Positions 5,608 through 58,137 of a DNA stretch of 64,000 nt are shown piece after piece. Numbering within the stretch: position 1 is the stretch's first letter; each line of letters starts with the position of its first letter. Position numbers and translations under genes: made by a program. The notes beneath the pieces are model-generated. The model was not told the origin of the DNA. It saw only the letters and a program-made list of their open reading frames with translations, and did no database searches. The DNA is from Candidatus Poribacteria bacterium (GTDB taxonomy: Bacteria; Poribacteria; WGA-4E; WGA-3G): contig OZ251518.1 of NCBI GenBank assembly GCA_965242965.1, positions 2,272,001 to 2,336,000 of the forward strand, read 5' to 3'.

Positions 5608-5721
5608 GTTTTTGTTGTTCGCGAGGCGTTCGCATAGCGGTGTTGGTTCAATAAAGCCGTCATTGAGGTTGTCAATGACTGGATTTTTGTTGCTAATTTT
5701 TATCACTTTATCGGTTTAAGT

Positions 5722-5987
5722 GAGGGTGTTTCATAACTCCGTTTCGGTATTTATCCTGCCTTGGAGGATGGGCGAATACCGGAGGGCATCGGGCCCACCT
5801 CTGTAGTTCGGGAGCGCCCGCTCCCGAACGGGTCAGGATCAGGCGATCCTGACCTACAGGGGTGAGGAGGTCTGACAGCCAAACGGATGGCGAGGGACAG
5901 GCCCTCGCCCTACGTGAAGGGGCGGCGTTTTTTCACCGTAGCGCGGGGCCTGTCCCCGCAACGTTGAGCGATTTATGAAACCCCTTC
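5722..5987. mobile_element. MITE-like REP-cargo element, copy 1 (266 bp)
   Basis: TIRs GAGGGTGTTTCATAA / TTATGAAACCCCTTC; perfect 8-bp direct repeat GTTTAAGT at 5714-5721 and 5988-5995. Confidence 0.85.
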
Positions 5988-6070
5988 GTTTAAGTCCAAT
6001 CAATCTCAAACATCCAGAGCCAGATGCCAAAGTGATTTTGTTCGTGAGCGAATCCGCCTTATGCGTCTGT

Positions 6071-6367
6071 CTATAAATCGGTGCACCTGCCTGCCCGTAG
6101 ATTTTCACGGACTTTTTCAGCGAAAGCGTCAAGTTTTCCGGCTTTCACATCTGCCTCAAACTGCTGTGTCCACGCTTCCCAATCAGCCTCTAAGGCTTCA
6201 TGCAGTTCATGCTCAAGCGATTTCAGCAGTGCCGCTTTTGTGCGTTCCTGACATTTGACTTCGGGAACTTCCGGGATCCACCCAATCCATCCCTCGCCGT
6301 TTCTACGGATATGGGCAATATAGGATTCGTCAAATTCCAGATTCCGGATAGTCTGCACTTGTTTCAT
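6071..6367 (-). CDS. Small antitoxin-like protein (HicB-like N-terminus plus 'W..QFEAD..AGKLD' C-terminus)
   Basis: GWIGWIPEVPEVKCQERT, then DWEAWTQQFEADVKAGKLD; SD GGAGG upstream of MKQV. Confidence 0.55.
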   Translation of the reverse strand: MKQVQTIRNLEFDESYIAHIRRNGEGWIGWIPEVPEVKCQERTKAALLKSLEHELHEALEADWEAWTQQFEADVKAGKLDAFAEKVRENLRAGRCTDL

Positions 6368-6422
6368 GGAACCTCCTATGTTCTCACGTTCGTCTTTGGA
6401 CATCCTCCCCTCACAAATTGGA

Positions 6423-6983
6423 CTACTCCGCAGTGGCATAGCCATACAACTCAAACTCGGCGATTTTGGCGAGTGCAGTAATCGGACCGCTGACATAAGT
6501 GACATACTGCCCGCGTTGGTTTTTGCCGCCTTTGACGTTATCGCGTTTCAGTGCGGCATCATCTGTCGTGCCCCGCACCACCAATTTCACGCCTGTTGTC
6601 TTAACAACCTTCCTGAGTCGGATATCAAGGATTTTTTGCGTGTTGCCCCGCGCCTCATGAATTTTATCCCATTCCCCCTGCGAGTTCAACGCCATCAGCG
6701 TGAATTCCTCCAGATTCGGCGAGTGGATCACGATGCGATAGAGTGACTTTTCCACCGGTAAAAAGACAGTCGCCTCTGATGGCACGCCGAGGTCTGTCCG
6801 AAAATCACCTGAACCCTTTTTGCGTCGCGATTTCCCGACAGTCTCCAACCGCCCATCAATGATACCCGGGTCATTCGCTGTTGCACCGGGTAGGCGCGCG
6901 TAGTTTTCACTCCACTGCTGGCCAAGTGTGCAACCGTAGCACAGAAGCAGCAGGACGAGACTCATGTTTCGTTTCAGTTTCAC
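6423..6983 (-). CDS. Secreted or lipoprotein hypothetical, discoidin/galactose-binding-like fold
   Basis: Hydrophobic signal ending in GC; IIDG..ET and IAEFELYG motifs. Confidence 0.55.
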   Translation of the reverse strand: MKLKRNMSLVLLLLCYGCTLGQQWSENYARLPGATANDPGIIDGRLETVGKSRRKKGSGDFRTDLGVPSEATVFLPVEKSLYRIVIHSPNLEEFTLMALNSQGEWDKIHEARGNTQKILDIRLRKVVKTTGVKLVVRGTTDDAALKRDNVKGGKNQRGQYVTYVSGPITALAKIAEFELYGYATAE

Positions 6984-6985
6984 GC

Positions 6986-7987
6986 TCAGTTCCTCCTCGG
7001 ATTTAATTCTTCAATCGCCTGAAGGATGTCGCTTTTCTCCAATTTTCGCAAGTTAAACTGCAATTCTTTAAAGAACGGCACCAAATCCACGCCTGCGGCT
7101 TTGCTGAAGTAGTAGACGAGAAAACTGTTATTCATCGTGCCCGGGAGCCTTTGGTGGAGCCGGTCTGCTTCCATCATCCGGAAAACCCGGATGTAAAAAT
7201 CGTCGCCGTAATCTTCACGGAGTTTTGAGACGATGGAGTAGGAGTAGTTATACCGCCAGCGCGTGAGCGGACCGCCTGTCAGCGGACTCGTACCGGTGTG
7301 CCCCTTCCAGTCCTCAAGCGCGTTGACACCGTCAAGGTTGAGTTTTAAATCCCTGTCTAGATGGAGTTTGGTATGCGAGTTACCTTTCGCATACTCCGCC
7401 TGAATGAGCCCGGCAAGTCCCTCTGAAAACCACGTTGGAAGGAAATAGATATTGGTGAACGCGTGCGTTAATTCATGCGCCCTCACGTCATGCTGTTCAT
7501 ACATAGCGATCGGGAAATTCATCGTGATTTCGGTGACGAATTTCAGATAGGCACCGTCCTGATATCCTTGGCGATAACTGGTTCCGGTAGTCGCCGCGCT
7601 CCTGGTCCCCCGATAGACATCATACAAAGTCACGTGAATTTTATGTTTCGGTTGAAAGCCGAAGTAGTCGTTCATCGCATCGTAGAGGCTCTCCATGTAT
7701 CCGAGCGCGCTGAGCGCGAAGGTGTGCCGTTCTGCCGGCGTATCAAACGCCTCCAGCACGCGTAAATCTTCGTTGAAGGTGAGGGTATAGTGGTCACTTT
7801 CCCCGAAGAGCGCGTCCGGTGCAATCTGAATGTTTGCCGACGAAGGCGCGAGCATGAGCGTGTCAGCAGTCCGCTCTTCAATCAGGCGTGCCTCTCGCTT
7901 CTGTTGCGCCTCCTGCAAAGCGGTGCATCCGCTGAAAAGGGACGTTACCGCGATGAAAAAGAGTAAAGTTGCGATTCTGTGTTTCAT
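6986..7987 (-). CDS. Lipoprotein, gluzincin (HExxH) metallopeptidase-like
   Basis: Lipobox FSGC; AHELTH...WFSEGLA. Confidence 0.7.
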   Translation of the reverse strand: MKHRIATLLFFIAVTSLFSGCTALQEAQQKREARLIEERTADTLMLAPSSANIQIAPDALFGESDHYTLTFNEDLRVLEAFDTPAERHTFALSALGYMESLYDAMNDYFGFQPKHKIHVTLYDVYRGTRSAATTGTSYRQGYQDGAYLKFVTEITMNFPIAMYEQHDVRAHELTHAFTNIYFLPTWFSEGLAGLIQAEYAKGNSHTKLHLDRDLKLNLDGVNALEDWKGHTGTSPLTGGPLTRWRYNYSYSIVSKLREDYGDDFYIRVFRMMEADRLHQRLPGTMNNSFLVYYFSKAAGVDLVPFFKELQFNLRKLEKSDILQAIEELNPRRN

Positions 7988-8116
7988 AGTTTATTTTTTT
8001 ATTTTAATCGGCGGGGGACAGGCCCCCGCCCTACGGTATTTCAAGGGGCTTGGTATCTGCGCCGTTGCATCAAGAACGTGAGACAGGTCCCCGCCCTACG
8101 GTATCTCTACGGTATC

Positions 8117-11523: not shown

Positions 11524-11560
11524 AGTGCTCTCCTTACAAAAACCGTTTGCCATTTATTAT

Positions 11561-11853
11561 CAGGCTATTTCATAACTCCGTTTCGATATTTATCCTGCCT
11601 TGGAGGGAGGGCGAATACCCGAAGGCATTGGGCCCACCTCTGTAGTTCGGGATCGCCTGATCCCGAACAGATCAAGATCAGGCGATCTTGACCTACAGGA
11701 GTGATGAGGTCTGCCAGCCAAACGCATGGCGAGGGAAACCCGCTCGCATGCGCGTATGGCATGCGAGGACCCACGCCCTACGTGAAAGGGCGGCGTTTTT
11801 TCCGCAGCGCAGGGCCTATCACCTCGACGTTGAGCGATTTATGAAACACCCGC
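11561..11853. mobile_element. MITE-like REP-cargo element, copy 2 (293 bp)
   Basis: Degenerate left TIR CAGGCTATTTCATAA, right TIR TTATGAAACACCCGC; 9-bp direct repeat ATTTATTAT at 11552-11560 and 11854-11862. Confidence 0.8.
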
Positions 11854-11893
11854 ATTTATTATAGCAGCATTCGCAAAAAAAGACAAGTCTCAA

Positions 11894-12877: not shown

Positions 12878-12996
12878 TGGTTTCAATTCCTCTGTTTTTT
12901 TCGTATAGTGCGTCTGTTTTGTTAGTGTAAAAGTATACACGATTTTCGAGCATCTGGCAAGTTAAAATTGTGTTATCCAAACAACTCTTGTTAAAA

Positions 12997-13345
12997 CGTA
13001 GGGCGGGGGCCTGTCCCCCGCCATGGTCAAGACCGCGAGTTACGGCGACGCGCTATTAGGCATTGAGCGTCACCCCTGTAGGTCAGGATCGCCCAATCCT
13101 GACCCGTTTGTGATCAGGCGATCACAAACTACAGAGAGTAACGAAAAAAACGTCTCTTGTTCTCTTCAGGTCCGTAGGACCTAAGACGGCATCTTGACGA
13201 TGGAGCACGCGGGGGAAACCCGCTCGGATGCGCGTATGGCATCCGAGGGCCCCGCGCTACGGGAACATCGAGACCAGGAGGTCTCTCCTACCAATGCATA
13301 CCGAAATGCATCGAGACCGGGAGGGAGCACCTACCAACGCGCTAC
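12997..13345. repeat. GTAG-REP hairpin cluster without TIRs
   Basis: GTAGGGCGGGGGCCTGTCCCCG, GTAGGTCAGGATCGCCCAATCCTGACC, nested GGATGCGCGTATGGCATCC, and GAGACCAGGAGGTCTCTCCTAC. Confidence 0.8.
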
Positions 13346-14571: not shown

Positions 14572-15090
14572 ATGACGACAGTTCTGCCTACGGATGAGAC
14601 GGTAGAGAACTACAAAGGGCAGCTCATCCAGTATTGCCAAGAGCGCGGCCTCGGTCAGCCTGTTTATACCGAGACGCAGCACGGGCCGGCGGACTCGCCG
14701 AGTTGGCACGTTACCATCAGTTACGGGGACTGCACGCATGAGACACCGGAACTGGTTCCCGGTTCAAAAAAGTTCGCGCACCAAGTCGCCTCCAAGCAGG
14801 TGTTGGAGGAGATCGATTCTCGGCGCGAAAACTTTTTGGCTGGCGAGGTGAAAACTGAGTCCGCGCCGGCCACCGAACCGCCACCCACGCCGACGGTTGC
14901 CATTGAAGTGCCGATTGACATCGTCGCAAGCGCGATGACGATTGCGAACGAACGGTTGACAGCATCGCAACCGACGCGATACCGCACACTCTCCGATGCA
15001 GAATTCTCGCAGAAACTGGCCCGATTGACGCTCCAAATCGTCCGAGAACTCGTCGAGAAGGCTCAACAAGACGAGATTACGTTGATGTGA
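14572..15090 (+). CDS. Stand-alone double-stranded RNA-binding motif (dsRBD) protein
   Basis: NYKGQLIQYCQ...PVY...GP...WHVTI...GSKKFAHQVAS dsRBD followed by a Pro-rich linker and helical C-terminus. Confidence 0.7.
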   Translation: MTTVLPTDETVENYKGQLIQYCQERGLGQPVYTETQHGPADSPSWHVTISYGDCTHETPELVPGSKKFAHQVASKQVLEEIDSRRENFLAGEVKTESAPATEPPPTPTVAIEVPIDIVASAMTIANERLTASQPTRYRTLSDAEFSQKLARLTLQIVRELVEKAQQDEITLM

Positions 15091-15394
15091 GGGTGTTTCA
15101 TAAATCGCTCAACGTCGCGGTGACAGGCCCCCGCGTTATTGCCGGTAGGAGAGACCTCCTGGTCTCGATGAGGTAAGGCGTGCCCGCGCCTGACATGTTT
15201 GTGCTCGGACGCTTGCAAACGACAGCGGGTGTCTCTCCTACAGGGACATTGCTCGCATCGAGACCGGGAGGTCTCTCTTACGGGGACATCACTTGCATCA
15301 AGACCGGGAGGTCTCTCTTACCAAGAGGGCGCGGGAGTCGCCTGCTCTCCAAGGGGAATAAATAAATACCGAAACGGATTTATGAAACACCTTC
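15089..15394. mobile_element. MITE-like REP-cargo element, copy 3 (306 bp)
   Basis: TIRs GAGGGTGTTTCATAA / TTATGAAACACCTTC; 10-bp direct repeat ACGTTGATGT / ACTTTGATGT (1 mismatch). Confidence 0.8.
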
Positions 15395-15419
15395 ACTTTG
15401 ATGTAACGCTGCTATCCGG

Positions 15420-19734: not shown

Positions 19735-20030
19735 CGGGGTGTTTCATAAATCGCTCAACGTCGCGGGAACAGGCCCCGCGCTGCGGTGAAAAAAACGCCG
19801 CCCCTTCATGTAGGGCGAGGGCCCTCGGATGCCACACGAGCATCCGAGCGGGTTTCCCTCGCCATGCGTTTGGCTAGCAGACCGCCTCACCCCTGTAGGT
19901 CAGGATCGCCTGATCCTGACCCGTTCGGGAGCGGGCGCTCCCGAACTACAGAGATAGGCCCGATGCTTGCTGGTATTCGCCCGCCCTCCAAGGCGGGATA
20001 AATACCGAAACGAAGTTATGAAACACCCTC
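19735..20030. mobile_element. MITE-like REP-cargo element, copy 4 (296 bp, inverted relative to copies 1-2)
   Basis: TIRs CGGGGTGTTTCATAA / TTATGAAACACCCTC; degenerate 9-bp direct repeat ATTAGAGGT / ATTAAAGGC. Confidence 0.8.
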
Positions 20031-24684: not shown

Positions 24685-27600
24685 TTAAGGATTATCCAAT
24701 TCTTCCAATATTTGCTGCACCAGCATCCGAAGCCGCTCATCTTTTGAGGGACGCTCCGCCTCCGGAGTCGGCGGCGTTGCAATAGATGGGGATGCCGCTT
24801 GTCCTAAAAACATCTGCTGGATTGCGCCTTCAAACGACGTATCCCACGCGAGTGCTTTGTTTGCTGCCTTGACGACTACTGCTTCTAGCTTCGGCCGGTT
24901 CTGCACCGGGTCGTTGCCGTTATCTTCCTCTGCCTGCGCATCTTTTTTCGGGACGGTGTAAATCGGCTCAACGTAAAAGATACCCTCCTCAATTGGGATA
25001 ACGTGCAGATTGCCGCGGATGACATCGTTCGCCTTCTCCCATTCAAGGAAACTGCGGGAAAGATGCTTATTAATATCGTCTTCCACCTGCTTAGGTCCCT
25101 CAACACTCACCTGGTTAGACAAAATATAGACGATGCGTTCTCCGTAGTGCGGTGCATCGCAGCGCGCCACCATCCACGCCTTCATATAGTTCACTTTCCT
25201 CGGCGGCGTAAAGGGAATGACGTTGACAAACTCCATCTTCTCCTCGCCCGGCAGCTTGAGCATCGCATAGTAGGGCATCATCTCCTGGTCTGGCACAGCG
25301 GAATAATATGCCTCTTTCGGGATTTTCCACTGCTTATCCTTGTCATAAAAGGTTTTCGCATCACGGACGTGATAGTCGCCATACATTTTCGCTTGGATGC
25401 GGGTGAGGTAATCGGGGAAGCGGAGATGCGCCTGCAACCCAGCCGGCATCTCGTCTATCGTTTTGAATAACTTCGGGAACGCGCGCCGATAGGCATCCGT
25501 AATCCACTCATCGTCCTTAATCGCGTAGAAATTCACCTCGCCGGTGTAGGCGTTGACAACCGTCACCCCCGCGTTCCTGATGTAATTGAATTTCTTAAAC
25601 CGCGGTTCCGCATATAACTCACTATCGGGGAGCAGCGAGGTATCGTCTTTGTAAAATTGCGCGTTCGGGTAATGCCGACTGGTGACGTAGAAATCGATAA
25701 TCCAATAGAGGTTACCGTCGTTGATGACAATATAAGGGTCTGCATCATAGTTAAGAAACGGCGCGATATGCGACAGCCGATCGGTGACAACGCGATTCCC
25801 CTGACGCGTGCCGATCTTCCGCCAGAACATAATCCGGCTCTCCGGTGTAATCGCAGGTTGGCGCAGGATACGGAAGAAGTCAAACCGCAGCGCGAAACAG
25901 AACCGTCGAAACCACCCACTTAACGCGACACCGCCGCTGCCATCGTAGTGATACGTCCCCTCCAGATAAGGCGGCGTGTGCCATTCTTCGGAATCCAGCA
26001 GCTGGTTGAGTTGTGAGTCGCCCGTTCCTAAATCGACTTTCCGGGTGACGTTATGCTCACTCTCGCGAGTGTTCGCGATGACATAGTCCTGCGTCATCTC
26101 GCCGTAATAGATGCGCGGTTGGGAGACGTTCAACTGCGCTGTATAAGCACGTTTGATTTTGATGGGCACATCCTTCACCCATAAATTGGGCAACCCTGTC
26201 CCTTCCAGAAATTCGTTAACCGGGGCGACGCAAACTCCGTAGCCGTGCGTAAAGGTTAGTTTCAGTTTGGACCATTCCTTTGTATCAGGGCTCGGTTCTC
26301 GCGCGGCGATGAGGACTTGTCGGTATTGTGCTGACACATCGCGAGGGACAGGCCCTCGCGCTACGGATTCAGATGTTTCTGGCAGTTCGCGAGGGACAGG
26401 CTCTCGCGCTACGGAATCAGGTGTTTCCGGCACATCGCGAGGGACAGGCTCCTGCTCTACGGAACCAGGCGTTTCTGGCATCGCGCTTCCATCACCAATC
26501 CGATACCTATCGACATCGGTATACGGATGAAAGTCGTGATGCACCTCAATCTGAGCATCGCGGAGGACGTTATAGAGGACGCGCCTGTCCCAAAGTTGGA
26601 TATTCGCCTTGACTTCTTCGTTGCGGTTGATTATCTCCAGCGTCGCCTCGCCTTTCTCATAATCCTTTTCGACGATGCTGTCCAGGTCAAACGCGTTGCG
26701 CGTGTATTCAATGTGCTGAGCGATGTGAGGTGCCTCTTTGGCGGCAGGCGTGTTTCGGACATCCCACCAATACACGGCGAGCGGATAGGCGTGAATCAGC
26801 ACGCCGTAACCGACAAGCCACATCCCTGCGGTGGCATACCACAAAATCCGTTTCCGCCAAAAGAGATTCAGCAGCACCGCAACGCCGACTCCGAGGAGGA
26901 TGCCACAATAAAGCCGAGTCGCGCCTTCAAATTGGACATCAACGTAGAAGAGTCCATGAACAGTGGTAAGTCCCTCCGAAAACGGAGTTGTGTAGACTTT
27001 GTTCCATAGATTAACGAAACTGCGCCATATCCCTGTTGCGAGCAACATGAGCCATAGCATGGAGCCGTGGATGACGATATATTTCTTGACGCGCGTCATC
27101 GTGCGCGCATCGCGCCGATAGTAGAAATTGTAAAGCAACCCGACAACTGCACACGTTACCCACAGCAGTGCCTTTACCCAGAGACTTACCCACTGATGAA
27201 CGGGGAAGTTGAAGAGATAGAAACCTACCGGGTTGCCGAATATAGTGTCGCTTTCCGGGGCAGCTGCATCGTCCGCAAGTTCAAGAGGGACAGGCACTTG
27301 CGCTACGGAATCAGGCATTTTCTCGATAGGGCGATACAGGTAACGGATGGCGGCATCGTCTAAGAGTAACATCGGCACAGCCAATACCACCGCGGCGAAA
27401 AAGATAAGGCAAAAAACGGTCCAGTGGAAAGAGACGGTGCGGGTGTGCGTCCATCGCCGAAATTCGCGCGATTCCGGGCAGAGGCGATTGGCGATGGCGG
27501 CGTTCGCGTTCATAAAACCGAGTGCCACGAGGAAAAATATGCCGAAGATGCCCCAGCGCGTCTGATGAAGTTTCCAGAAGACATCAACGTATCCGACGCT

Positions 27601-27816
27601 TTCAAACCAGAGATGTTCGGTATAGAGATAGGCGAGCGGCACGATGTTGCTGATGGCGATGATACCGCTGAGCCCCCACAGCAGGTATGCCTGCAGTTTG
27701 GCGGCACCGCGGCGGTGCCTGTCCTTCCGACGATACAGGAAAATTCCCCCGACGAACGTAACGATGCCGAGGAGGCTGCTGATGAGTATTTGTGAGATGG
27801 CGAAGTTGACTGACAT
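24685..27816 (-). CDS. UPF0182 family membrane protein with in-frame REP-derived inserts
   Basis: LWFESVGY, NIQLWD, DVDRY, FTHGYG, PRIYYGE, APFLNYDADPY, NYIRN, VIRGNLHVIP, YVEPIY. Confidence 0.9.
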   Translation of the reverse strand: MSVNFAISQILISSLLGIVTFVGGIFLYRRKDRHRRGAAKLQAYLLWGLSGIIAISNIVPLAYLYTEHLWFESVGYVDVFWKLHQTRWGIFGIFFLVALGFMNANAAIANRLCPESREFRRWTHTRTVSFHWTVFCLIFFAAVVLAVPMLLLDDAAIRYLYRPIEKMPDSVAQVPVPLELADDAAAPESDTIFGNPVGFYLFNFPVHQWVSLWVKALLWVTCAVVGLLYNFYYRRDARTMTRVKKYIVIHGSMLWLMLLATGIWRSFVNLWNKVYTTPFSEGLTTVHGLFYVDVQFEGATRLYCGILLGVGVAVLLNLFWRKRILWYATAGMWLVGYGVLIHAYPLAVYWWDVRNTPAAKEAPHIAQHIEYTRNAFDLDSIVEKDYEKGEATLEIINRNEEVKANIQLWDRRVLYNVLRDAQIEVHHDFHPYTDVDRYRIGDGSAMPETPGSVEQEPVPRDVPETPDSVAREPVPRELPETSESVARGPVPRDVSAQYRQVLIAAREPSPDTKEWSKLKLTFTHGYGVCVAPVNEFLEGTGLPNLWVKDVPIKIKRAYTAQLNVSQPRIYYGEMTQDYVIANTRESEHNVTRKVDLGTGDSQLNQLLDSEEWHTPPYLEGTYHYDGSGGVALSGWFRRFCFALRFDFFRILRQPAITPESRIMFWRKIGTRQGNRVVTDRLSHIAPFLNYDADPYIVINDGNLYWIIDFYVTSRHYPNAQFYKDDTSLLPDSELYAEPRFKKFNYIRNAGVTVVNAYTGEVNFYAIKDDEWITDAYRRAFPKLFKTIDEMPAGLQAHLRFPDYLTRIQAKMYGDYHVRDAKTFYDKDKQWKIPKEAYYSAVPDQEMMPYYAMLKLPGEEKMEFVNVIPFTPPRKVNYMKAWMVARCDAPHYGERIVYILSNQVSVEGPKQVEDDINKHLSRSFLEWEKANDVIRGNLHVIPIEEGIFYVEPIYTVPKKDAQAEEDNGNDPVQNRPKLEAVVVKAANKALAWDTSFEGAIQQMFLGQAASPSIATPPTPEAERPSKDERLRMLVQQILEELDNP

Positions 27817-27881: not shown

Positions 27882-28182
27882 GAGGGTGTTTCATAACTCG
27901 CTCAACGTCGCGGGGGAACCCGCTCGGATGCGCGTGTGGCATCCGAGGGCCCCGCGCTGCGGTGAAAAAAACGCTTCCCCTTCACGTAGGGCTGTAGGAA
28001 AACCTGTCCCTCGTCATGCGTTTGGCTGGCAGACTGCATCACCCCTGTAGGTCAAGATCGCCTGATCTTGACCCGTTCGGGATCAGGCGATCCCGAACTA
28101 CAGAGATGGGCCCAATGCCTTCTGGTATTCGCTCGCCCTCCAAGGCAGGATAAATACCGAAACGGAGTTATGAAACACCCTC
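27882..28182. mobile_element. MITE-like REP-cargo element, copy 5 (301 bp)
   Basis: Perfect TIRs GAGGGTGTTTCATAAC / GTTATGAAACACCCTC; perfect 8-bp direct repeat ATTTATAC at 27874-27881 and 28183-28190. Confidence 0.9.
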
Positions 28183-28184
28183 AT

Positions 28185-28946
28185 TTATACATAAGGCGCG
28201 ATGCACTCAGGCGAATCGTTCATCGGACGATTGACAAACCGCGACACCGGGTATGCCTCCATCTCCTCACTCGGATAGGGAACGAGGAGCGGCTGCAACG
28301 CCTCCGCTGACTGTTCCTCGGATGCGAGCCACTGCGCGTAGGCATCTGTCGGTAAAATCACCGGCATCCGGTGGTGAACCTGCTTTAACAAGGCGTTCGG
28401 CGCGCACGTGATGATGGTGCAGGAACGCACCGGCTCCTCCATCTCATCTGTCTTCCATACCTCCCATAACCCGGCAAACGCGAACGGCTTCTCGGATTGG
28501 AGCCGAATGTAGATAGGCTGTTTCAGCCTGGCGCCCGGCACCTTCTGCCATTCGTAGTATCCGTCAGCGACGATGAGGCACCGTCGCCGTTTATAGGCAG
28601 CGCGGAAGGAGGGTTTCTCGGCTAATGTTTCTGAGCGCGCGTTAATCATTCGGTTTCCGATTTTCGGGTCCTTCGCCCAAGAAGGGATGAGTCCCCAGTG
28701 GAAGAATTCGATTTGTGGGGAGGGCAGTGACTCGCGAGGGACAGGCCCTCGCGCTACGGTATCCGAAGCGTTTCCCGCGGGCGTGACGGTATCCGAATCA
28801 TTTCTCGCGGGCGTGTTGGTAATGACAGCGACATCTTGCGTCGGCGAGATGTTATAGCGCGGCGAGAGTCGCATCGGTATCTCAATGTCAAAGAAAGTTT
28901 GTGCTACCGTTTCCGTTTCGCTTGCGAGGGTAAATCGTCCGCACAT
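28185..28946 (-). CDS. SOS response-associated peptidase (SRAP/YedK/HMCES family)
   Basis: MCGRF, RYNISPTQ, WGLIPSW, INARSET, RRCLIVADGYYEW, HHRMPVIL. Confidence 0.95.
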   Translation of the reverse strand: MCGRFTLASETETVAQTFFDIEIPMRLSPRYNISPTQDVAVITNTPARNDSDTVTPAGNASDTVARGPVPRESLPSPQIEFFHWGLIPSWAKDPKIGNRMINARSETLAEKPSFRAAYKRRRCLIVADGYYEWQKVPGARLKQPIYIRLQSEKPFAFAGLWEVWKTDEMEEPVRSCTIITCAPNALLKQVHHRMPVILPTDAYAQWLASEEQSAEALQPLLVPYPSEEMEAYPVSRFVNRPMNDSPECIAPYV

Positions 28947-29009: not shown

Positions 29010-29849
29010 TTAGGTATCCGCTTTGGGTTGCGGCACGAGAATATCATCGCGCCAGCGGAGGCGGAATGAGGGACGCACGAGTGCTTCCGGTGATTGCAGC
29101 GTCAAGCCGCCATCCGCTGTCAAGACGATGCCGGTGACGAAATCTGCCTCATCGGATGCCAAGAAGAGCGCGGCATTGGCGATGTCCTCCGGCTTGCCGT
29201 ACCGTCCGATGGGATAGCAATCGCGCGAGGCTTGTTCCTCCAGCGTGTCCTCGGCGAGGGAGAGTTCGCCGCGTTCTCCAACAATCTGGCCGGGTGCAAT
29301 GGCGTTCGCGCGAATTCCCTCTCTGCCGTAATCAAGCGCGATGCTGCGCGTCAAGGCATTCAACCCACCTTTCCCCGCGCCGTAAAGTCCGAAGCCGGGG
29401 TTCGTAATCGTGGCGTTGACGGTAGAGATAAACACGAGACTGCCGCCGCCGTTGCGAGTCATTTCAGGGATACAATGCTTCGCGCCGAGCCAAGGACCGC
29501 CGAGCGTCACACCGAGGCTCTCGTTCCATTCCTCTAGTGTAAATTCAATCGCTTTTTTGGTGTAGGAGTGCGCGGCGTTATGGACAAGCGTCGTAATTTT
29601 GCCGTAGTTAGCCAACGCTGTTTTGACGAGCGTCTGCCACGTCATCTCATCGGCGACATCGCCCATCACGGCGACGGCTTCACCGCCTGCTTTCTGAATC
29701 TTCGCAACGGTTTCAGCCAATTTTCCTTCTCGGCGGCGGGTATTGACGACTACCTTCGCGCCTTCGCGTGCGAACCGGTAGGCGGTGGCTGCGCCAATGC
29801 CGCCCCATGCCGCCCCAGCGACAATAGCAACTTTTCCTTCAAGTCTCAT
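29010..29849 (-). CDS. SDR family NAD(P)-dependent oxidoreductase
   Basis: GKVAIVAGAAWGGIG, HNAA, YGAGKGG, IRANAIAPG, ADGG. Confidence 0.9.
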   Translation of the reverse strand: MRLEGKVAIVAGAAWGGIGAATAYRFAREGAKVVVNTRRREGKLAETVAKIQKAGGEAVAVMGDVADEMTWQTLVKTALANYGKITTLVHNAAHSYTKKAIEFTLEEWNESLGVTLGGPWLGAKHCIPEMTRNGGGSLVFISTVNATITNPGFGLYGAGKGGLNALTRSIALDYGREGIRANAIAPGQIVGERGELSLAEDTLEEQASRDCYPIGRYGKPEDIANAALFLASDEADFVTGIVLTADGGLTLQSPEALVRPSFRLRWRDDILVPQPKADT

Positions 29850-29874
29850 CGTTATCTCCCCTCTATTGAATGAT

Positions 29875-30035
29875 AATAACCGTCTCGGCCCCCGTAGCGC
29901 GAGGGCCTGTCCCTCGCAATGCCCTGTTGATAATAACCGTCCCGGCCCCCGTAGCGCGAGGGCCTGTCCCTCGCGATCGTGCAGGCCGTTTCCGTAGCGC
30001 GAGGGCCTGTCCCTCGCAACGCCGTAATGCCGCAC
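29875..30035. repeat. REP cluster (three GTAGCGCGAGGGCCTGTCCCTCGC units)
   Basis: Three near-identical palindromes, two within a short tandem duplication. Confidence 0.8.
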
Positions 30036-31396
30036 TACGGACAACATGGAAAACGTTTATGCCATTCGATCGCCTGCTGATAGGCATCCGCAATGTGAAT
30101 CAACCGTTTTTCGTCCCACCACATGCCTGCGAACTGCATCCCGATTGGAAGTCCTGCTTCAGTGAACCCGCACGGTACAGAAATCGCAGGCAAACCGAGC
30201 AGATTAAAAATCCGAGTCTCCTGTGTTAACCGGGGCCGAATTTCGTTTGAGTTGCTCCCCTGAATTAGCGGCGCGGGGATGGGCGTAGCAGGCGTTAACA
30301 GCACTTCAACCTTCCGGAACGCTTCCACAAATTCACGGCGTGCTGCATCTCGCGCGCGGACCGCGGTGACGTAGTCAAATGCCGAAAGTTCAAGTCCCGC
30401 CTCAAGGAGTTCACGGACATCTGCACCGTAATCCTCTCGGCGCGCGAGGAGTTGTTCACGATGGAAATGGGCTGCCTCCGCCATTAAAATCGTGAGGGCA
30501 GCGTGATGTGCCTCCGGCACCGAAGGCATGGATACCTCAATGAATTCAACGCCTAACTCTTCAAGCACCTGTATCGCTGTCTCAATCGCCGATGCCACTT
30601 CCGCGTCCAGATTCTCAAAAAAGTGCGCTTTGTGCAAGCCTACCTTCATGCCAGCGATGGGTTTCCCGAGGTCGGCGGTGTAATCCGAGACAGGTGGCGC
30701 GTCGTCCACGAGGACATTCATCAGCATTGCAACATCGCGCGCCGTGCGGCACATCGGCCCGATGCAATCCAGCGACTGCGCGAGCTCTACCACGCCGTGC
30801 AAACTAATTCTTCCATACGTCGGTTTCAAGCCGACGATGCCACAGAGCGAGGCGGGGATGCGCACGGAACCGCCGGTATCCGTGCCGAGCGCGCCTGCAC
30901 AGAGTCTCGCGGCGACAGCGGCACCCGAACCGCCGCTTGAGCCGCCAGAGACGTGCGCTGTGTTCCACGGGTTGCGCGTCGCGCCGAAGTGCGGATTCTC
31001 TGTCGTTACGCCGAACGCATGTTCGTGCAAGTTCGTCTTCCCGATGATAATCGCGCCGGCGGCTTTCAGGCGTGCGATGACGGTTGCGTCTCTTACGCGG
31101 TTAGACATCGCGCCTCCGAAATTTTTCGCACCGCAGGTAGTCTCTGTCCCGGCGATGTGGATGATATCCTTCACGGCGATGGGTATCCCGCTGAGCGGAC
31201 CGGGGTTTTCGCCTCGGTGTATCTCTGCCTCTATTTCCTTCGCGCGTTGCAGGTTCTCCTCGTAGCACAGCGAGATAAATGCGTTGAGTTGCGGTTCGCA
31301 CCGTTCGATCTGCGCGAACGTCGCCTGAATCAGTTCTGTCGGCGAGATGTCGCTGCGCGTGAGTTCGGCGATGGAGTGTGTTAGGATGTCAGTCAT
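30035..31396 (-). CDS. Amidase signature family protein
   Basis: GIPIAVKD, GKTNLHE, GGSSGGSG, GTDTGGSVRIPAS. Confidence 0.95.
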   Translation of the reverse strand: MTDILTHSIAELTRSDISPTELIQATFAQIERCEPQLNAFISLCYEENLQRAKEIEAEIHRGENPGPLSGIPIAVKDIIHIAGTETTCGAKNFGGAMSNRVRDATVIARLKAAGAIIIGKTNLHEHAFGVTTENPHFGATRNPWNTAHVSGGSSGGSGAAVAARLCAGALGTDTGGSVRIPASLCGIVGLKPTYGRISLHGVVELAQSLDCIGPMCRTARDVAMLMNVLVDDAPPVSDYTADLGKPIAGMKVGLHKAHFFENLDAEVASAIETAIQVLEELGVEFIEVSMPSVPEAHHAALTILMAEAAHFHREQLLARREDYGADVRELLEAGLELSAFDYVTAVRARDAARREFVEAFRKVEVLLTPATPIPAPLIQGSNSNEIRPRLTQETRIFNLLGLPAISVPCGFTEAGLPIGMQFAGMWWDEKRLIHIADAYQQAIEWHKRFPCCP

Positions 31397-34759: not shown

Positions 34760-35433
34760 GAGGGGGTTTCATAAATCGCTCAACAAGGGGCCGTTTTTTT
34801 TCCATAGGGCGGGGCCCTCGGATGCCACACGCGCATCCGAGAGGGTTTCCCCCGCGAGCGGTGAGAGAAATGCCGATGACACCGTAGCGCGGGGGCCTGT
34901 CCCCCGCGATGCCTGTCGTCAAGAGGGCATCTTAGGTCCTTTAGGACCTACATGTCTATAGAAAAACGTATCGGCCCATGTCAAGGTCCTTTAGGTCCTT
35001 AATAAAAACACGCGCGGCATATTAAAAACTATTAAGGACCTAAAGGACCTTAGCGTTCTTCGCGGGCGCGCATGCTATAGACATTCAGGACCTAAAGGAC
35101 CTGAAGAGAACGAGTGTCGTTCTTAACCGGAGCGCGGGGGCCTGTCCCCCGCGAGCGTTGGATTGCACGAACGATGGCGAGGGACAGGCCCTCGCCCTAC
35201 GGTAAAACGTGGCCACCTCCGTAGGTCAAGATCGCCTGATCTTGACCCGTTCGTGTCCCCCGCGATCGCTGCATGGCGAGGGACAGGCCCTCGCCCTACG
35301 GTAACCCGGGGCGTTTTTTACCGTCGACCCGTTCGGGATCAGGCGATCCCGAACTACGGTCTCTCGCATGCGCGATGCATCGAGACCGGGAGGGCTCTCC
35401 TACCGGGAAGACATTGATTTATGAAACACCCTC
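34760..35433. mobile_element. MITE-like REP-cargo element, copy 6 (674 bp)
   Basis: TIRs GAGGGGGTTTCATAA / TTATGAAACACCCTC; flanks CATTAAATT / TGTTAAATT; carries an AGGTCCTTTAGGACCT module plus several GTAG REPs. Confidence 0.8.
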
Positions 35434-35623: not shown

Positions 35624-35860
35624 GAGGGTGTTTCATAAATCGATGCACACCCGTAGGAGAGACCTCCCGGTCTCGATTCTGCCGGTAGGAGAGACCTCCC
35701 GGTCTCGATGTTCCCGTAGCGCGGGGGCCTGTCCCCCGCGAGCGTTGCATTGCGCGAGCGATGGCGAGGGACAGGCCCTCGCCCTACGGTGAAGTGCCGT
35801 TTTTTCCATGCGGTCCGTCGTGCTATAGACATTAAGGTCTTAACAGACCTTAACGGCATT
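35624..35860. mobile_element. Orphan left end of the MITE family with REP cargo
   Basis: GAGGGTGTTTCATAA followed by GTAGGAGAGACCTCCCGGTCTCG x2 and GCGAGGGACAGGCCCTCGCCCTAC; no right TIR seen. Confidence 0.6.
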
Positions 35861-44817: not shown

Positions 44818-45148
44818 GTAGGCGGGACATCCTTGTCCCGATAATTGCATCGAGACCAGGAGGGCTCTCCTACTGCATCCTCTGGGTAGGAGGGACATCC
44901 TTGTCCCGATAGGCGTTCGGGTAGGAGGGACATCCTTGTCCCGATAGGCGTTCGGGTAGGAGGGACATCCTTGTCCCGATAGAGGTATTGCATTGAGACC
45001 GGGAGGGCTCTCCTACTGCATCCTCTGGGTAGGAGGGACATCCTTGTCCCGATAGGCGTTCGGGTAGGCGGGACATCCTTGTCCCGATAATTGCATCGGG
45101 ACCGGGAGGGCTCTCCTACCGACGTTGAGCGAGTTATGAAACACCCTC
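44818..45148. repeat. Tandem REP array (six GTAGG(A/C)GGGACATCCTTGTCCCGAT and three GACC.GGAGGGCTCTCCTAC units) ending in an orphan right TIR
   Basis: Units at 44818, 44886, 44921, 44956, 45029 and 45064; TTATGAAACACCCTC ends at 45148. Confidence 0.85.
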
Positions 45149-46689: not shown

Positions 46690-46981
46690 GACGGTGCTTC
46701 AGAACTCGTTTTCCCCAGTAGGAGAGACCTCCCGGTCTCGATGTTCCCGTAGCGCGGGGGCCCTCGGATGCCACACGCGCATCCGAGCGGGTTTCCCCCG
46801 CGAGGGCTCAAGAACCGTTTTTTTATCGTAGCGCGGGGGACAGGCCCCCGCGATCATTGGAATGCGCGTGCATGAACGATGGCGAGGGACAGGCCCTCGC
46901 CCTACGTGAACGGGAGGCGTTTTTTTCACCGCATCGCGGGTGCCTGTCCCCGCGACGTTGAGCAATTTATGAAACACCCTC
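46690..46981. mobile_element. MITE-like REP-cargo element, copy 7 (292 bp)
   Basis: Degenerate left TIR GACGGTGCTTCAGAA, right TIR TTATGAAACACCCTC; flanks ATATATAT / ATATATAG. Confidence 0.75.
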
Positions 46982-51457: not shown

Positions 51458-51975
51458 GAGGGGTTTCATATTTCGATGGCTTCCCGGTAGGAGAGACCTC
51501 CTGGTCTCGATGCATCCCCGTAGGAGAGACCTCGGGTTTCGATGTTCCCGTAGCGCGGGGGCCTGTCCCCCGCGATCTCCATCATCACGAGGTGGCGTTT
51601 TAGGTCCTTTAGGACCTACATGTCTATAGCAGCCCGTGTCGGCCCGTTTTCAAGGTCCTTTAGGTCCTTAATAGGAAAACACGCGGCACGGCAAAATCCA
51701 TTAAGGACCTAAAGGACCTTAGGGTTCGTCGCGGACGCGCGTGCTATAGACATTAAGGTCCTACGGACCTAAGAGACGTTTTTTCATCTGTAGTTTGTGA
51801 TCGCCTGATCACAAACGGGTCAGGATCAGGCGATCCTGACCTACAGGGTTGAGGCGATCTGCCAGCCAAACGCATGGCGAGGGACAGGCCCTCGCCCTAC
51901 GTGAAGGGGAAGCGTTTTTTCCACCGTAGCGCGGGGCCTGTCACCGCGCCGTTGAGCAATTTATGAAACACCCTC
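51458..51975. mobile_element. MITE-like REP-cargo element, copy 8 (518 bp)
   Basis: TIRs GAGGGGTTTCATA / TTATGAAACACCCTC; 9-bp direct repeat GTCTTAAAT / ATCTTAAAT. Confidence 0.85.
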
Positions 51976-54758: not shown

Positions 54759-54779
54759 TCGCGCTTTCCAAGCGCGACT

Positions 54780-55239: not shown

Positions 55240-55758
55240 ATGCAAAATCAAACTCCCCTCGTTGGCATCGTCATGGGAAGCGATTCCGACCTGGACAGAA
55301 TGGCAGAAGCCGCAAAAGTGTTAGAAGAATTTGAGATCCCGTTCGAGATAACCGTCTCCTCGGCGCATCGTTCGCCGGAACGGACGCTCGCGTGGACAGA
55401 GAAGATTAAGGCTAACGGCGGACAGGTAATCATCGCTGGCGCAGGCCGCGCGGCGCATCTCGCCGGTGTCATCGCCGCGCATACAACGCTTCCAGTCATC
55501 GGTGTGCCGATTGACGGCGGACCGCTCAACGGCGTTGACGCGCTCTATGCCACCGTGCAAATGCCGCCCGGTATCCCTGTCGGCACAATGGCGATAGGTT
55601 CCGGCGGCGCGCGGAACGCGGGCTTGTTCGCTGTGCAGATATTAGCACGCAAATTCCCCGAACTTGACGAGAAACTCCTCGCCTATAAAGCGAAGTTGCG
55701 CGACGGTGTCGCAGAAAAAGCGGCGCGGTTGGAAGAGGTGGGGTATCAAAACTACTAA
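55240..55758 (+). CDS. purE: N5-carboxyaminoimidazole ribonucleotide mutase
   Basis: VGIVMGSDSD, SAHRSPE, AGAGRAAHLAG, LPVIGVP, VQMPPGIPV. Confidence 0.97.
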   Translation: MQNQTPLVGIVMGSDSDLDRMAEAAKVLEEFEIPFEITVSSAHRSPERTLAWTEKIKANGGQVIIAGAGRAAHLAGVIAAHTTLPVIGVPIDGGPLNGVDALYATVQMPPGIPVGTMAIGSGGARNAGLFAVQILARKFPELDEKLLAYKAKLRDGVAEKAARLEEVGYQNY

Positions 55759-55764
55759 GCCATC

Positions 55765-56490: not shown

Positions 56491-56503
56491 TGGAGGAAAA
56501 CCG

Positions 56504-56833
56504 ATGATTTACGAATTGCGCACCTATCAGGTGGTGCCCGGCAAAATGCAAAACCTGAACGACCGGTTTGCGAACATCACGATGCCTTTGTTTGAAAAAC
56601 ACGGCATGAAAGTGATCGGATTTTGGGAAACCGCCATCGGCGAGGCGACGACAACGGAACTCGTCTATCTCCTTGCGTTTGAGGATTTAGGACATTATCA
56701 ACGCGCGTGGGATGCCTTCATCGCCGATCCGGAATGGCAGGCGGCGAAACGGCTGACAGAAGTCGGTGGCCCGCTGGTGAACGTGGCGGGAGCTAAGATT
56801 TTGGAGCCGACGGTGTATTCGCCGTTGCAGTAG
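56504..56833 (+). CDS. NIPSNAP family protein
   Basis: MIYELRTY...PGK...F...HG...FW...W.AF.ADPEW. Confidence 0.9.
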   Translation: MIYELRTYQVVPGKMQNLNDRFANITMPLFEKHGMKVIGFWETAIGEATTTELVYLLAFEDLGHYQRAWDAFIADPEWQAAKRLTEVGGPLVNVAGAKILEPTVYSPLQ

Positions 56834-56902
56834 GAGCACGATCTTTTACAGGGCTCGCAGGCTCCCTGTCGCGAGGCTCGTTGAGTCCTAACCGTGGATG
56901 TT

Positions 56903-56937
56903 AAAAAAGAGGGGCTCGCCGTGTTGCGAGCCCTCTC
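56903..56937 (-). terminator. Intrinsic terminator between convergent genes
   Basis: GAGGGGCTCGC...GCGAGCCCTCTC stem with A6 on + (U-tract on -). Confidence 0.6.
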
Positions 56938-56967
56938 GGAAATCGCAATCATGCATGCATTGACTCA

Positions 56968-57288
56968 TCAATTCAACGCCTTTGGACGTGCGTGTTTCCG
57001 TAAATAATCCACCAGCGTGTGAGCAGAGGCGGGGAGCGTTGCATCATCATAGGCAACAGAGACTTCCGAGTCTCCGTCCGCAATCGTAATGTTATATCGA
57101 TAGAGATCGCGGCTGGATTCCGAGAAACGCGTATCCGATGCGAAAATCCCACTGGCTTTCACCATCTGCTCAATTTCTTCTGGAGTGACTTCTGACAAGG
57201 TTTCTGCTAGCGTGGCGGAATCGGTGTCAAGTTCACACGCCTTGGGCAGGCCGAAAAATCCGCCTGACTGGATAAAACTGATTTTCAC
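56968..57288 (-). CDS. Protealysin inhibitor emfourin-like protein
   Basis: KISFIQSGGFFG...D.YRY.ITI...D; GTG start after SD GGAG. Confidence 0.75.
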   Translation of the reverse strand: MKISFIQSGGFFGLPKACELDTDSATLAETLSEVTPEEIEQMVKASGIFASDTRFSESSRDLYRYNITIADGDSEVSVAYDDATLPASAHTLVDYLRKHARPKALN

Positions 57289-57330
57289 GAGAGAACCTCT
57301 CCAAAGAAATTGCGCGTTAGCCAACTATCT

Positions 57331-58029
57331 CAGGGGGTTTCATAAATCTGTGTAGGAGAGCCCTCCCGTTCTCAATACGAGCGATGCTCCCGTAGGAGAG
57401 ACCTCCCGGTCTCGATGCAATATGGCAGCGCGCCTACCGGGGCCGCGGCGGCAGAAAGCCCCTTCATCGTAGGGCGGTGGGAAAACCTGTCCCTCGCCAG
57501 TGTTCGCGCGCCAGGCCCTATAGGTCAGGCTCGCCTGATCCTGACCTGTTTGTGATCAGGCGAGCACAAACTACAGCGGGGGAAACACACATCGTGACGA
57601 TGGAGATCGCGGGGGAAACCCGCTCGGATGCGCGGATGGCATCCGAGGGCCCCCGCGCTACGATAAAAAACGGCGTGCGTTACCGTAAGGCGAGGGCCTG
57701 TCCCTCGCCATCGCTCGCGCAGCGAAAAAACGTCTCTTGTGCTCTTCAGGTCTGTAAGACCTGAATGTCTATAGCACGCGCACCCGCGATGAACGCTAAG
57801 GTCTGTAGGACCTTAATAGTTTTTGCCAGGGCCGCGCGTGTTTTTTATTAAGGACCTAAAGGACCTTGAAAAGGGACCGGCACGTTTTTCTATAGACATG
57901 TAGGTCCTACGGACCTAAAACGCCACCGCTTGACGATGGAGATCGCGGGGGACAGGCCCCGCGCTACGGGAACATCGAGACCAGGAGGTCTCTCCTACGG
58001 GTGTGCATCGAAATACGACCCTCCCCCTC
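57331..58029. mobile_element. MITE-like REP-cargo element, copy 9 (699 bp)
   Basis: Left TIR CAGGGGGTTTCATAA, eroded right TIR ending CCCCCTC; perfect 8-bp direct repeat AACTATCT at 57323-57330 and 58030-58037. Confidence 0.75.
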
Positions 58030-58137
58030 AACTATCTGGCTAACATTTATTATACACAATTTTTTCCACAAAAAACAACATTAACATTTTCCATAGGGCG
58101 AGGCACAAGGTCTCGTTCAACAGCAACCGAAGAATGC

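Follow-up and report, generated by a model that had tools for sequence, protein, structure and literature searches.

What kind of mobile DNA joins the terminal repeats of a transposon to an interior built of REP hairpins? This question is raised by a stretch of 64,000 nucleotides from Candidatus Poribacteria bacterium (contig OZ251518.1, positions 2,272,001 to 2,336,000; hereafter the window), in which nine elements and two one-ended copies (35624 and 45134–45148) were located where a sequence-only reading had placed them. According to that reading they form a two-tier system, in which shells mobilised by a DDE transposase carry and disperse REP arrays of RAYT type that are then reshuffled in place. 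One kind of mobile DNA indeed rides here within another: the shell is derived from an insertion sequence (IS) and the interior consists almost entirely of REP hairpins.

Terminal repeats, target sites and empty sites

The terminal inverted repeat (TIR) GAGGGTGTTTCATAA was found with no more than two mismatches 16 times in the window versus 0.05 expected by chance (100 shuffles); the 5.7-Mb genome contains 989 such occurrences (396 exact matches, 411 with one mismatch and 182 with two). It had been described as 15 bp long and common to all elements. The enrichment is real, but the TIR of the parent IS considered below comprises 17 bp, and a number of ends are degenerate: on the left, 11561 and 46690 deviate by more than two mismatches, while the right end of 57331–58029 is reduced to ...CCCTC. 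Genome-wide, 304 neighbouring +/− pairs less than 3 kb apart were registered and 381 of the 989 ends are unpaired; the pairs shorter than 1 kb make up the set of 290 elements analysed further. The MITEs have a median length of 378 bp with a mode at 256–301 bp and number about 500 in this sponge-symbiont genome. All nine in the window are intergenic. They are given here with the one-ended copies, arms A (CTCCGTTTCGG...) and B (ATCGCTCAACG...) being the subterminal arms, which occur in either orientation, as had been noticed before, and TSD being the target-site duplication:

5722..5987, core MITE, 266 bp: TIR, arm A, REPIN 4c+/4b-, REP 2-, arm B, TIR; exact TSD GTTTAAGT
11561..11853, core MITE, 293 bp: A, 4a+/4b-, B; left TIR degenerate; TSD ATTTATTAT
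15089..15394, MITE, 306 bp: B, REP3, A; TSD ACGTTGATGT / ACTTTGATGT
19735..20030, core MITE, 296 bp: B, 4b+/4c-, A; TSD ATTAGAGGT / ATTAAAGGC
27882..28182, core MITE, 301 bp: B, 4b+/4a-, A; exact TSD ATTTATAC
34760..35433, expanded MITE, 674 bp: 1+ 6- 2- 4b+ 2- 4a- 3-; TSD (A/G)TTAAATT
35624..35790, plus strand, one-ended copy: TIR, then REPs 3+ 3+ 1+ 2-; right TIR missing
44818..45148, minus strand, one-ended copy: tandem REP3-type array (periods 35 and 143 bp), arm B, TIR
46690..46981, MITE, 292 bp: 3+ 1+ 2- B; left TIR degenerate; TSD ATATATAT / ATATATAG
51458..51975, expanded MITE, 518 bp: 3+ 1+ 6- 5- 4a+ 4b- 2- B; TSD (G/A)TCTTAAAT
57331..58029, expanded MITE, 699 bp: 3+ 3+ 4a- 5+ 5- 3-; right TIR ...CCCTC; exact TSD AACTATCT

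The flanking repeats cited as examples in the sequence-only reading (GTTTAAGT, ATTTATTAT, ATTTATAC and AACTATCT) are each present on both sides of their element, and the remaining five elements have flanking repeats of 8–10 bp with 0–2 mismatches. Across the genome an 8-bp flanking repeat, with 8/9-bp offsets allowed, was exact in 96 of the 290 pairs and had one mismatch in another 59 (155/290 together), versus 0/290 in the control shifted by 25 bp. The duplications are more frequent than chance; their length is 8 or 9 bp instead of the proposed 8–10 bp. Their AT-rich consensus is A-N-T-T-A-A-N-T, and the target ANTTAANT is evident at all ends. In 135 of the 290 pairs there is no TSD with one mismatch or fewer; these pairs, as well as the unpaired ends, need deletion or recombination after insertion, which was observed at one orthologous locus only.

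Comparison with another genome of the same genus (G001) revealed that the elements are absent from the orthologous site in all six cases that could be assessed (5722, 11561, 15089, 19735, 27882 and 51458; 34760, 46690 and 57331 were left out). Empty sites with a single copy of the TSD do exist in this relative, and two of the sites are bridged by independent metagenome contigs. At 11561 the empty site is clean, with a single ATTTATTAT, a contig of 3,342 bp from run X5 bridges 11549->11856, and synteny with the second congener (G002) breaks at 11561..11853. The site of 15089..15394, an element abutting the stop codon of the ORF 14572-15090, is also empty and clean, and contigs from runs X12 and X15 connect 15088->15418. 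The orthologous interval of 5722..5987 lacks the MITE and has a diverged junction; the 19735 and 27882 elements are missing from a somewhat diverged and a diverged site, respectively, and the G001 site lacking 51458, also diverged, carries a 12-bp tandem duplication. For the one-ended copy 44818..45148 the corresponding site in G001 holds 43 bp with one unrelated REP.

The parent insertion sequence and its transposase

The ends had been assigned to a DDE transposon, and an autonomous IS of about 1.1 kb with identical TIR was indeed detected in related genomes. Its 32 full-length copies (1102–1124 bp), found in loci of relatives, have GAGGGTGTTTCATAA at both ends and the same TSD length (8/9 bp) and target consensus as the MITEs. 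They contain a single ORF of 332–353 aa, and the 332-aa product is a DDE_Tnp_1_3 (IS982-like) transposase named ‘hypothetical’ in NCBI records. Other genera of the family possess intact copies of the IS, seven of them in one genome (G022). Arm B of the MITEs has 21 nt in common with the right end of the IS, and up to 137 bp of its left end is retained at eight loci.

With Pfam PF13612 (DDE_Tnp_1_3) the transposase scored 37.4 and 39.1 bits, above the gathering cut-off of 27, in a search in which control genomes with matches include Lactococcus lactis; with the NCBIfam IS982 equivalog it scored 52.2 and 54.9 bits, below the cut-off of 130. Thus the parent IS resembles the IS982 family in length, in its one ORF of ~330 aa and in exceeding the Pfam threshold, and differs from it in falling short of the equivalog one. 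Members of this family, as defined by ISfinder, are about 1 kb long, with one ORF and TSDs of 3–9 bp, a range that includes the 8/9 bp registered here. The ends GAGGG... are unlike the ‘AC’ ends typical of IS982.

The window encodes no transposase, as had been stated, and neither an intact cognate transposase nor any PF13612 match was found in the whole genome under study (G000), where the cognate IS persists only as a relic at C1:2371353-2371746. Both enzymes had been expected to act in trans; this holds for RAYT, but the DDE enzyme is absent from the genome, and the MITE family therefore looks orphaned. With only a relic of the cognate gene left, it is probably immobile in this host. There is good support for the elements having been moved by a DDE transposase; since a genome with so many copies has no intact transposase, it is from relatives in other genera that we infer mobilisation by the IS enzyme.

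REP hairpins in the interior

The GTAG-led hairpins that were said to fill the interiors are genuine GTAG REPs, of which the genome has 8,391 (8,389 chromosomal) in eight patterns. REP coverage is 30–45% just inside the TIR versus 1–4% just outside, and the jump lies exactly at the TIR, supporting REPs as the cargo of MITEs. The relation might be the reverse, if the IS or MITE targeted pre-existing REP clusters. Elements inserting into REPs are known, IS1397 and similar ones among them. They are also named in the available part of the Delihas review. Yet here the TSDs are AT-rich ANTTAANT and not REP sequence, the DNA just outside the TIR is poor in REPs, and the empty sites of 11561, 15089, 19735 and 51458 have no REP at the insertion point. 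REPs as the target are contradicted by these sites, and such an origin seems extremely improbable.

A single RAYT is encoded in the genome (C1:3147502-3147963). It scores 120.6 bits with NCBIfam REP_Tyr_transpos NF047646 (cut-off 80), matches PDB 4er8 and is surrounded by 14 family-4c REPs (6 + 8), so that a RAYT flanked by these REPs, which the sequence-only reading had suggested looking for, does exist. A search of the genome by tblastn and with PF01797 yielded this RAYT and one IS605-type relic; it disclosed no cognate RAYT beside REP families 1, 2, 3, 5 or 6. Families 1, 2 and 3 are the most numerous.

Only about 20 bp at each end are constant among the 290 elements, which have 209 architectures. 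The most frequent of them, of the A / 4+4- / 2- / B type with differing TSDs, count 26, 15, 7, 6, 5 and 4 copies. Near-identical groups comprise 48 of the 290 elements, all core-like (groups of 16, 11, 5, 4 and 4), and 5722..5987 belongs to the 16-strong one. A near-complete twin was found for 68 of the 91 elements of 230–310 bp and only for 8–16 per longer size class, by a measure of mutual coverage without collinearity, which repeated modules can inflate. The amplifying unit is a core of ~250–300 bp with the family-4 REPIN, while most of the longer forms are unique, entire REP units making the difference between them. Discrete REP-unit indels distinguish the members of ten related pairs, tandem arrays occur within 41 of the 290 elements, and the interior of 34760..35433 includes a palindromic element of family-5/6 of ~190 bp. 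At two orthologous occupied sites in two species the interiors differ even in a subterminal arm, which independent re-insertion into a hot spot explains equally well as change in place.

One might assume that shells move essentially empty and collect REPs later, either as a neutral interior or because resident hairpins attract others. The uniqueness of most long REP-rich forms, the tandem arrays and the differing interiors at orthologous sites are in line with this assumption. However, the core arrangement is shared by dozens of sites whose TSDs differ, forms the near-identical groups and is also carried by an insertion specific to G001 (L081), and no family of REP-free TIR pairs was found among the 290 elements. 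Late filling of empty shells is, therefore, very unlikely.

Relation between the two transposition systems

The two-tier proposal in its full form implies that DDE shells are the main dispersers of REPs and seed their clusters, that RAYT remodels them and that the two systems are coupled. In favour of it, 3,095 of the 8,389 chromosomal REPs belong to clusters in contact with one TIR or more, the cargo boundary is sharp, the core REPIN belongs to the family flanking RAYT, and the genome with the MITE burst has 4,335 family-1/2 REPs versus 1,064 and 610 in two congeners (4–7 times more). This correlation, however, is based on one genome, and G002, with its 610 family-1/2 REPs, has a single TIR match. 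Moreover, 1,443 of the 2,115 clusters, with 5,294 REPs (63%), have no TIR within 120 bp, and degenerate TIRs (up to four mismatches) were registered in only 121 of the 2,886 flanks of TIR-less clusters versus 40 in the control. One such cluster in the window is itself polymorphic among close relatives:

12990..13345, REP cluster without TIR, for comparison: 1+ 4b+ 4a- 3-

The X5 contig, which joins 12985->13335, lacks it, and G001 holds REPs of another family there, which shows REP turnover independent of MITE shells. The REPs predate the MITE burst. Thus, the claim stands in so far as DDE shells do carry REP cargo of RAYT type, but with 5,294 of 8,389 REPs outside them shells are not needed for REP dispersal, and we consider the two-tier system in its full form unlikely. 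Reshuffling in place, its second component, agrees with related copies that differ by whole REP units and with the differing orthologous sites; RAYT may be its agent, but tandem duplication or slippage (arrays in 41/290) and gene conversion are equally open.

Based on these data the family consists of MITEs derived from the 1.1-kb IS982-like IS, probably with a REP core amplified as cargo and interiors diversified afterwards. Binding of the 17-bp TIR would fall to the IS transposase (332 aa, DDE_Tnp_1_3), which would insert the element at A-N-T-T-A-A-N-T via an 8/9-bp staggered cut. From this IS, common in Candidatus Poribacteria, the MITEs have arisen as non-autonomous derivatives, and in this genus GTAG REP/REPIN units, originating from its own RAYT-served REP population, have probably replaced nearly everything between the ~20-bp ends. 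DDE transposition would then have multiplied the core of ~250–300 bp (arm A, family-4 REPIN, REP2, arm B) to hundreds of copies, with its REPs hitch-hiking, after which interiors would have gained and lost whole REP units, possibly through RAYT-mediated insertion beside resident REPs, conversion from other copies, slippage between hairpins or tandem duplication. The data show that the elements are MITEs with this parent IS, TSD and target, that empty sites exist, that the interior units are REPs served by a RAYT, that the cargo boundary is sharp and that copies differ unit by unit; which enzyme or process alters the cargo, and whether before or after insertion, we infer.

Such a combination may be compared with several known systems. 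BIMEs, the mosaic REP clusters of enterobacteria, are not known to possess TIRs or TSDs or to be transposed as units by a DDE enzyme. They are similar in alternating REP orientation, variable composition and tandem expansion. BIMEs are named in PMC2817692 and PMC3184786. REPIN-RAYT systems (Bertels & Rainey 2011, PMC3116915; Nunvar et al. 2010, PMC2817692) share the GTAG-led hairpins in thousands of extragenic copies, inverted doublets (here 4+/4- and 1+/2-), a single-copy RAYT flanked by its own REPs and genus-restricted families; here, in contrast, 37% of REPs lie in clusters bounded by DDE-type TIRs, in units with TSDs, and one RAYT faces five or more REP sequence families. Classical bacterial MITEs (Correia/NEMIS, RUP, Nezha, ERIC and MITEAba12), which are listed in PMC3733652 and PMC6382973, are likewise short, non-coding, intergenic and abundant, with IS-matching TIRs of 15–30 bp, TSDs of fixed length and mobilisation in trans. 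Their interior, however, is fairly fixed, while here it is made of variable REP units of another transposition system and the host genome lacks the helper IS. The minisatellite MITE of Porphyromonas gingivalis also encloses an array of variable repeat number, although, in the part of PMC4596501 available, this is a tandem minisatellite and not a set of independent HUH-type mobile units. Composites of degenerate GTAG units and unrelated stem-loops and TIRtrons/TIRYTs likewise number hundreds of copies and unite GTAG REP material with inverted repeats of another kind, but in the available text of Di Nocera et al. 2013 (PMC3733652) their TIRs flank tyrosine-transposase genes and are unlinked to DDE IS or TSDs, whereas the TIR considered here is that of a DDE IS, with 8/9-bp TSDs.

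The MITE shell can also move larger cargo. Between two TIRs at C1:54311-57212 (2.9 kb) there is an ankyrin/dockerin ORF, flanked by the TSD ATTTAAGT, and both G001 and G002 have single-copy empty sites for this shell.

Terminal repeats, target duplications and vacant sites

The 15-mer terminal inverted repeat (TIR) GAGGGTGTTTCATAA has 16 matches with up to two mismatches in the window (C1:2272001-2336000, C1 being the main contig of the source genome G000), where 0.05 are expected, and the nine elements and two orphan ends delimited by the sequence-only reading all bear TIR matches at their ends. Some of these ends are more degenerate than that reading implied: on the left in 11561 and 46690 (elements are named by their left coordinates) and on the right in 57331-58029. 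Among the flanking direct repeats, GTTTAAGT, ATTTATTAT, ATTTATAC and AACTATCT, quoted as examples of target site duplications (TSDs), are exact, those of the remaining five elements are 8-10 bp long with 0-2 mismatches, and the two subterminal arms, A and B, do occur in both orientations. All nine elements are located between ORFs. The insertion of the one at 15089 hit the stop codon of ORF 14572-15090, and since GA of its TIR completes TGA at 15088-15090, the reading frame stops at the same place as in the same-genus genome G001. An Rfam scan of the window had no hits above gathering thresholds.

In the whole G000 (5.66 Mb plus a 38-kb second contig, for which no match was found in a plasmid collection; 54% G+C) 989 TIR matches were registered (mismatches: none in 396, one in 411, two in 182). 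Among them, 304 neighbouring pairs of opposite orientation lie less than 3 kb apart, with a length peak at 256-301 bp, and 381 ends have no partner. The outer 8 bp at both ends are identical in 63 of the 304 pairs and differ at one position in another 36, while in the control shifted 20 bp outwards none of the 304 has one mismatch or fewer. With 9-bp duplications allowed, TSDs were found in 96 (exact) + 59 (one mismatch) of 290 pairs shorter than 1 kb (control 0/290), and the consensus of the duplicated target is A-N-T-T-A-A-N-T. Of the 16 pairs exceeding 900 bp, a single one has a TSD, and ORFs read in three of these 16 included no transposase. At no more than one mismatch the TIR occurs 807 times in G000 and at most 15 times in any of 40 relatives; G002, a congener assembled in four contigs, has one match. 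About 500 copies in G000 against 15 or fewer TIR matches in each relative searched point to a lineage-specific, dated burst.

All six window elements that can be placed in G001 (flank identity 87-93%) are absent from it; for 34760, 46690 and 57331 homology or the contig stops at the site. One copy of the duplicated target is present in G001 at the sites of 11561 and 15089, and at those of 19735, 27882, 51458 and 5722 the element is absent and the junctions have diverged. Independent metagenome contigs bridge two window sites in agreement with G001: in run X5 a contig of 3,342 bp with 95-98% identity links 11549 to 11856, and contigs of runs X12 and X15 link 15088 to 15418. Contig joints between different repeat copies, which were the majority, were set aside, and repeat-bin depth was not taken as copy number.

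Insertions specific to G001 and missing from G000 also exist. Two sites are occupied in both genomes with the junction in common and with a different interior and even arm, one of the G000 copies having lost its left TIR together with 21 bp of the flank. These differences fit equally well with in-place change, with conversion by a different copy and with repeated insertion at a hot spot.

Synteny with G002 breaks exactly at MITE 11561-11853, the flanks of which are about 150 kb apart there (1159411 versus 1010388 in G002:C1), and G001 is collinear. At its target, the unoccupied ortholog of the 51458 site (G001:C157, near 26186-26193) shows CTTAAA(G/T)ACTGG (12 bp) duplicated in tandem, possibly because of slippage or as the footprint of an excision. 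Insertions at G000:C1:3012258-3012750 and in G001 (locus L011, 3300-3600) have flank direct repeats of 20 bp and 15 bp rather than 8/9 bp, and one TIR among them is partly overwritten by flank sequence.

Parent insertion sequence

The 1.1-kb parent IS was traced via small contigs and contig ends of relatives. Searching 61 family genomes with its C-terminal ORF revealed intact copies of the autonomous IS with the same ends in two further genera, including seven in the related genome G022, and a weak fragment only was detected by the same query in G000. Intact copies are 1102-1124 bp long, with an exact TIR at each end (17 bp complementary) and a single ORF (337-353 aa as listed, 332 aa being typical of database entries); AT-rich TSDs of 8/9 bp were found for IS copies, 32 of which were examined.

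Profile matches of the IS protein
Pfam PF13612 (DDE_Tnp_1_3): 37-39 bits, cut-off 27
NCBIfam IS982: 52-55 bits, below the cut-off of 130

At E <= 1e-5 the protein matches 1,491 homologues, of which only a few have a name, this being "hypothetical", and 48 of 48 IS loci in species genomes are labelled as Candidatus or uncultured Poribacteria. PF13612 has no match in G000, the only IS remnant there is degenerate and adjoins a TIR (C1:2371353-2371746), and among the listed self-megablast matches for multi-copy blocks of at least 700 bp none was a TIR-bounded autonomous copy. Arm B has 21 nt in common with the right end of the IS, and up to 137 bp of its left end are kept at eight loci, which is the sole IS-MITE similarity detected by BLAST beyond the TIR.

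REP arrays inside and outside the shells

GTAG-led hairpins number in thousands according to k-mer counts in G000. Eight fixed patterns match 8,391 REPs, or 3.9% of the genome, with families beyond them, such as GTAGGAGGGACATCC and GTAGGCGCGGTTTCAA, left uncounted.

REP families in G000
Family 1: 2,189 copies
Family 2: 2,351 copies
Family 3: 1,785 copies
Families 4a / 4b / 4c: 668 / 485 / 469 copies
Family 5: 322 copies
Family 6: 122 copies

Across 41 genomes families 1/2 are genus-confined (4,335 in G000, 1,064 in G001, 610 in G002 and 0-2 in the rest). The only RAYT of G000 (154 aa, C1:3147502-3147963; minus strand, 1417-1881 of extracted locus L002) scores 120.6 bits against NCBIfam REP_Tyr_transpos (cut-off 80) and resembles TnpA-REP (PDB 4er8). 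This RAYT is flanked by 6 and 8 family-4c units on its two sides (14 in total). RAYT homologues are present in 26 of 41 genomes, and the remaining PF01797 match in G000 belongs to an IS605-type relic that also has a TnpB gene.

Several side observations concern these repeats and enzymes. No RAYT adjoins the far more numerous families 1-3 in G000, and the best RAYT of G002 is only 56% identical to that of G000. An IS200/IS605-type locus at G000:C1:3124157-3125711 (L001 267-1821) combines an intact 408-aa TnpB-like ORF with a Y1 transposase having two TGA breaks. Family-2 matches at 26344, 26392, 27286, 28737 and 29894-29994 fall inside long ORFs (24685-27816, 28185-28946, 29010-30047). There are two readings of this: REPs located in coding sequence, or ORFs that do not represent genes. 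A palindromic element of about 190 bp made of families 5/6, with motifs AGGTCCTTTAGGACCTAC and CTATAGACAT, is seen at 34930-35110, 51603-51790 and 57805-57900 of the window and recurs both inside and outside shells.

At the 989 TIR ends, REPs cover 1-4% of the outer 400 bp and 30-45% of the sequence from 25 bp inwards, and empty sites of 11561, 15089, 19735 and 51458 have no REP at the insertion point. This step at the TIR and the REP-free empty sites mean that REPs are part of the element rather than of its target. A TIR is lacking within 120 bp of 1,443 of the 2,115 REP clusters (5,294 REPs); 441 are accompanied by one and 177 by both; degenerate TIRs are slightly enriched at edges of TIR-less clusters (121 versus 40 in the control, 2,886 flanks). 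The TIR-less cluster at 12990-13345 of the window is missing in an X5 contig of 95-98% identity, and G001 has a different REP family there, from which it follows that turnover of REP clusters at fixed intergenic sites takes place even in the absence of shells. REPs, therefore, do not depend on shells. The "two-tier system" of the sequence-only reading holds as to the two enzymologies and the carriage of REPs, but it overstated their dependence on shells and ascribed the remodelling to RAYT without evidence.

The 290 pairs comprise 209 architectures. The commonest one (250-301 bp) consists of arm A, inverted doublet 4+/4- (REPIN), REP 2-, optional 1+ and arm B; the end combinations are A/B in 62, REP3-arm/B in 48 and REP3/REP3 in 43 pairs, others being rarer. 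Near-identical full-length groups (at least 88% identity across at least 95% of length) include 48 of the 290 elements, all of them similar to the core, i.e. the form of about 250-300 bp with arm A, family-4 REPIN, REP2 and arm B.

Elements with mutual coverage of at least 0.9, by length (the measure is blind to collinearity)
230-310 bp: 68 of 91
310-400 bp: 11 of 50
400-550 bp: 16 of 68
550-1000 bp: 8 of 57

TSD frequency is alike in non-core (66/199) and core-like (32/91) elements. Ten pairs of otherwise at least 88% identical elements differ by discrete blocks, for instance one REP3, a 2+/1-/3- block or a hairpin of 35 bp located within a REP, and tandem arrays are present in 41 of 290 elements, as well as in the window.

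Origin, novelty and larger cargo

The feature is real and known mechanisms explain it well. In the simplest account a MITE would have originated from an IS982-like IS and had its interior occupied by REPs of the genus, the core of about 250-300 bp would then have been amplified via DDE transposition with REPs as passengers, REP arrays would have grown and shrunk by single units, and the helper IS would have been lost. The IS transposase would be expected to insert at ANTTAANT with 8/9-bp duplications. No new kind of transposition mechanism is involved; the novelty is the family itself, with its unusual REP-only and highly variable interior. Literature search for Poribacteria together with "miniature inverted-repeat" found no paper in the collection searched, and the titles and abstracts surveyed on RAYT/REPIN/MITE describe no REP-filled MITEs. 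REPs, MITEs, BIMEs and GTAG-plus-stem-loop composites are covered by PMC3733652 and PMC3184786, in whose sections on these repeats DDE-type MITEs filled with REPs are not described. Both GTAG families with thousands of members and REP-rich organisms of the PVC group have been recorded before.

A bolder and rather doubtful possibility is that two unrelated transposition systems of this lineage are physically coupled, so that the DDE shell of about 20 bp serves as a general vehicle colonised by RAYT/REPIN, its insertions plant REP seeds at AT-rich sites giving rise to private fast-evolving arrays, and host genes, among them a eukaryote-like ankyrin gene of this sponge symbiont, are also duplicated and relocated by the shell. 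Growth of REP seeds into private arrays would account for 37% of REPs in TIR-touching clusters and for the 209 architectures. The family is a clear natural case of HUH/RAYT REPs riding inside a DDE MITE with a sharp and measurable cargo boundary, and it offers a system for studying REP array growth since one and the same initial array has been replicated independently in every TSD-marked shell. On the practical side, elements of this kind fragment short-read assemblies of sponge symbionts, and at least one synteny breakpoint is marked by them.

Shells can move a symbiosis-type (ankyrin/dockerin) gene as well. Outside the window, a TIR pair at C1:54311-57212 (L003 312-3213) delimits 2,902 bp with the exact TSD ATTTAAGT and encloses, between REP arrays on either side, an ORF of 588 aa with ankyrin repeats, a dockerin domain and an HExxH-like motif. 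In both G001 and G002 the site is uninterrupted, with a single target copy, and a paralogue, 73-76% identical, is located at a syntenic locus elsewhere.
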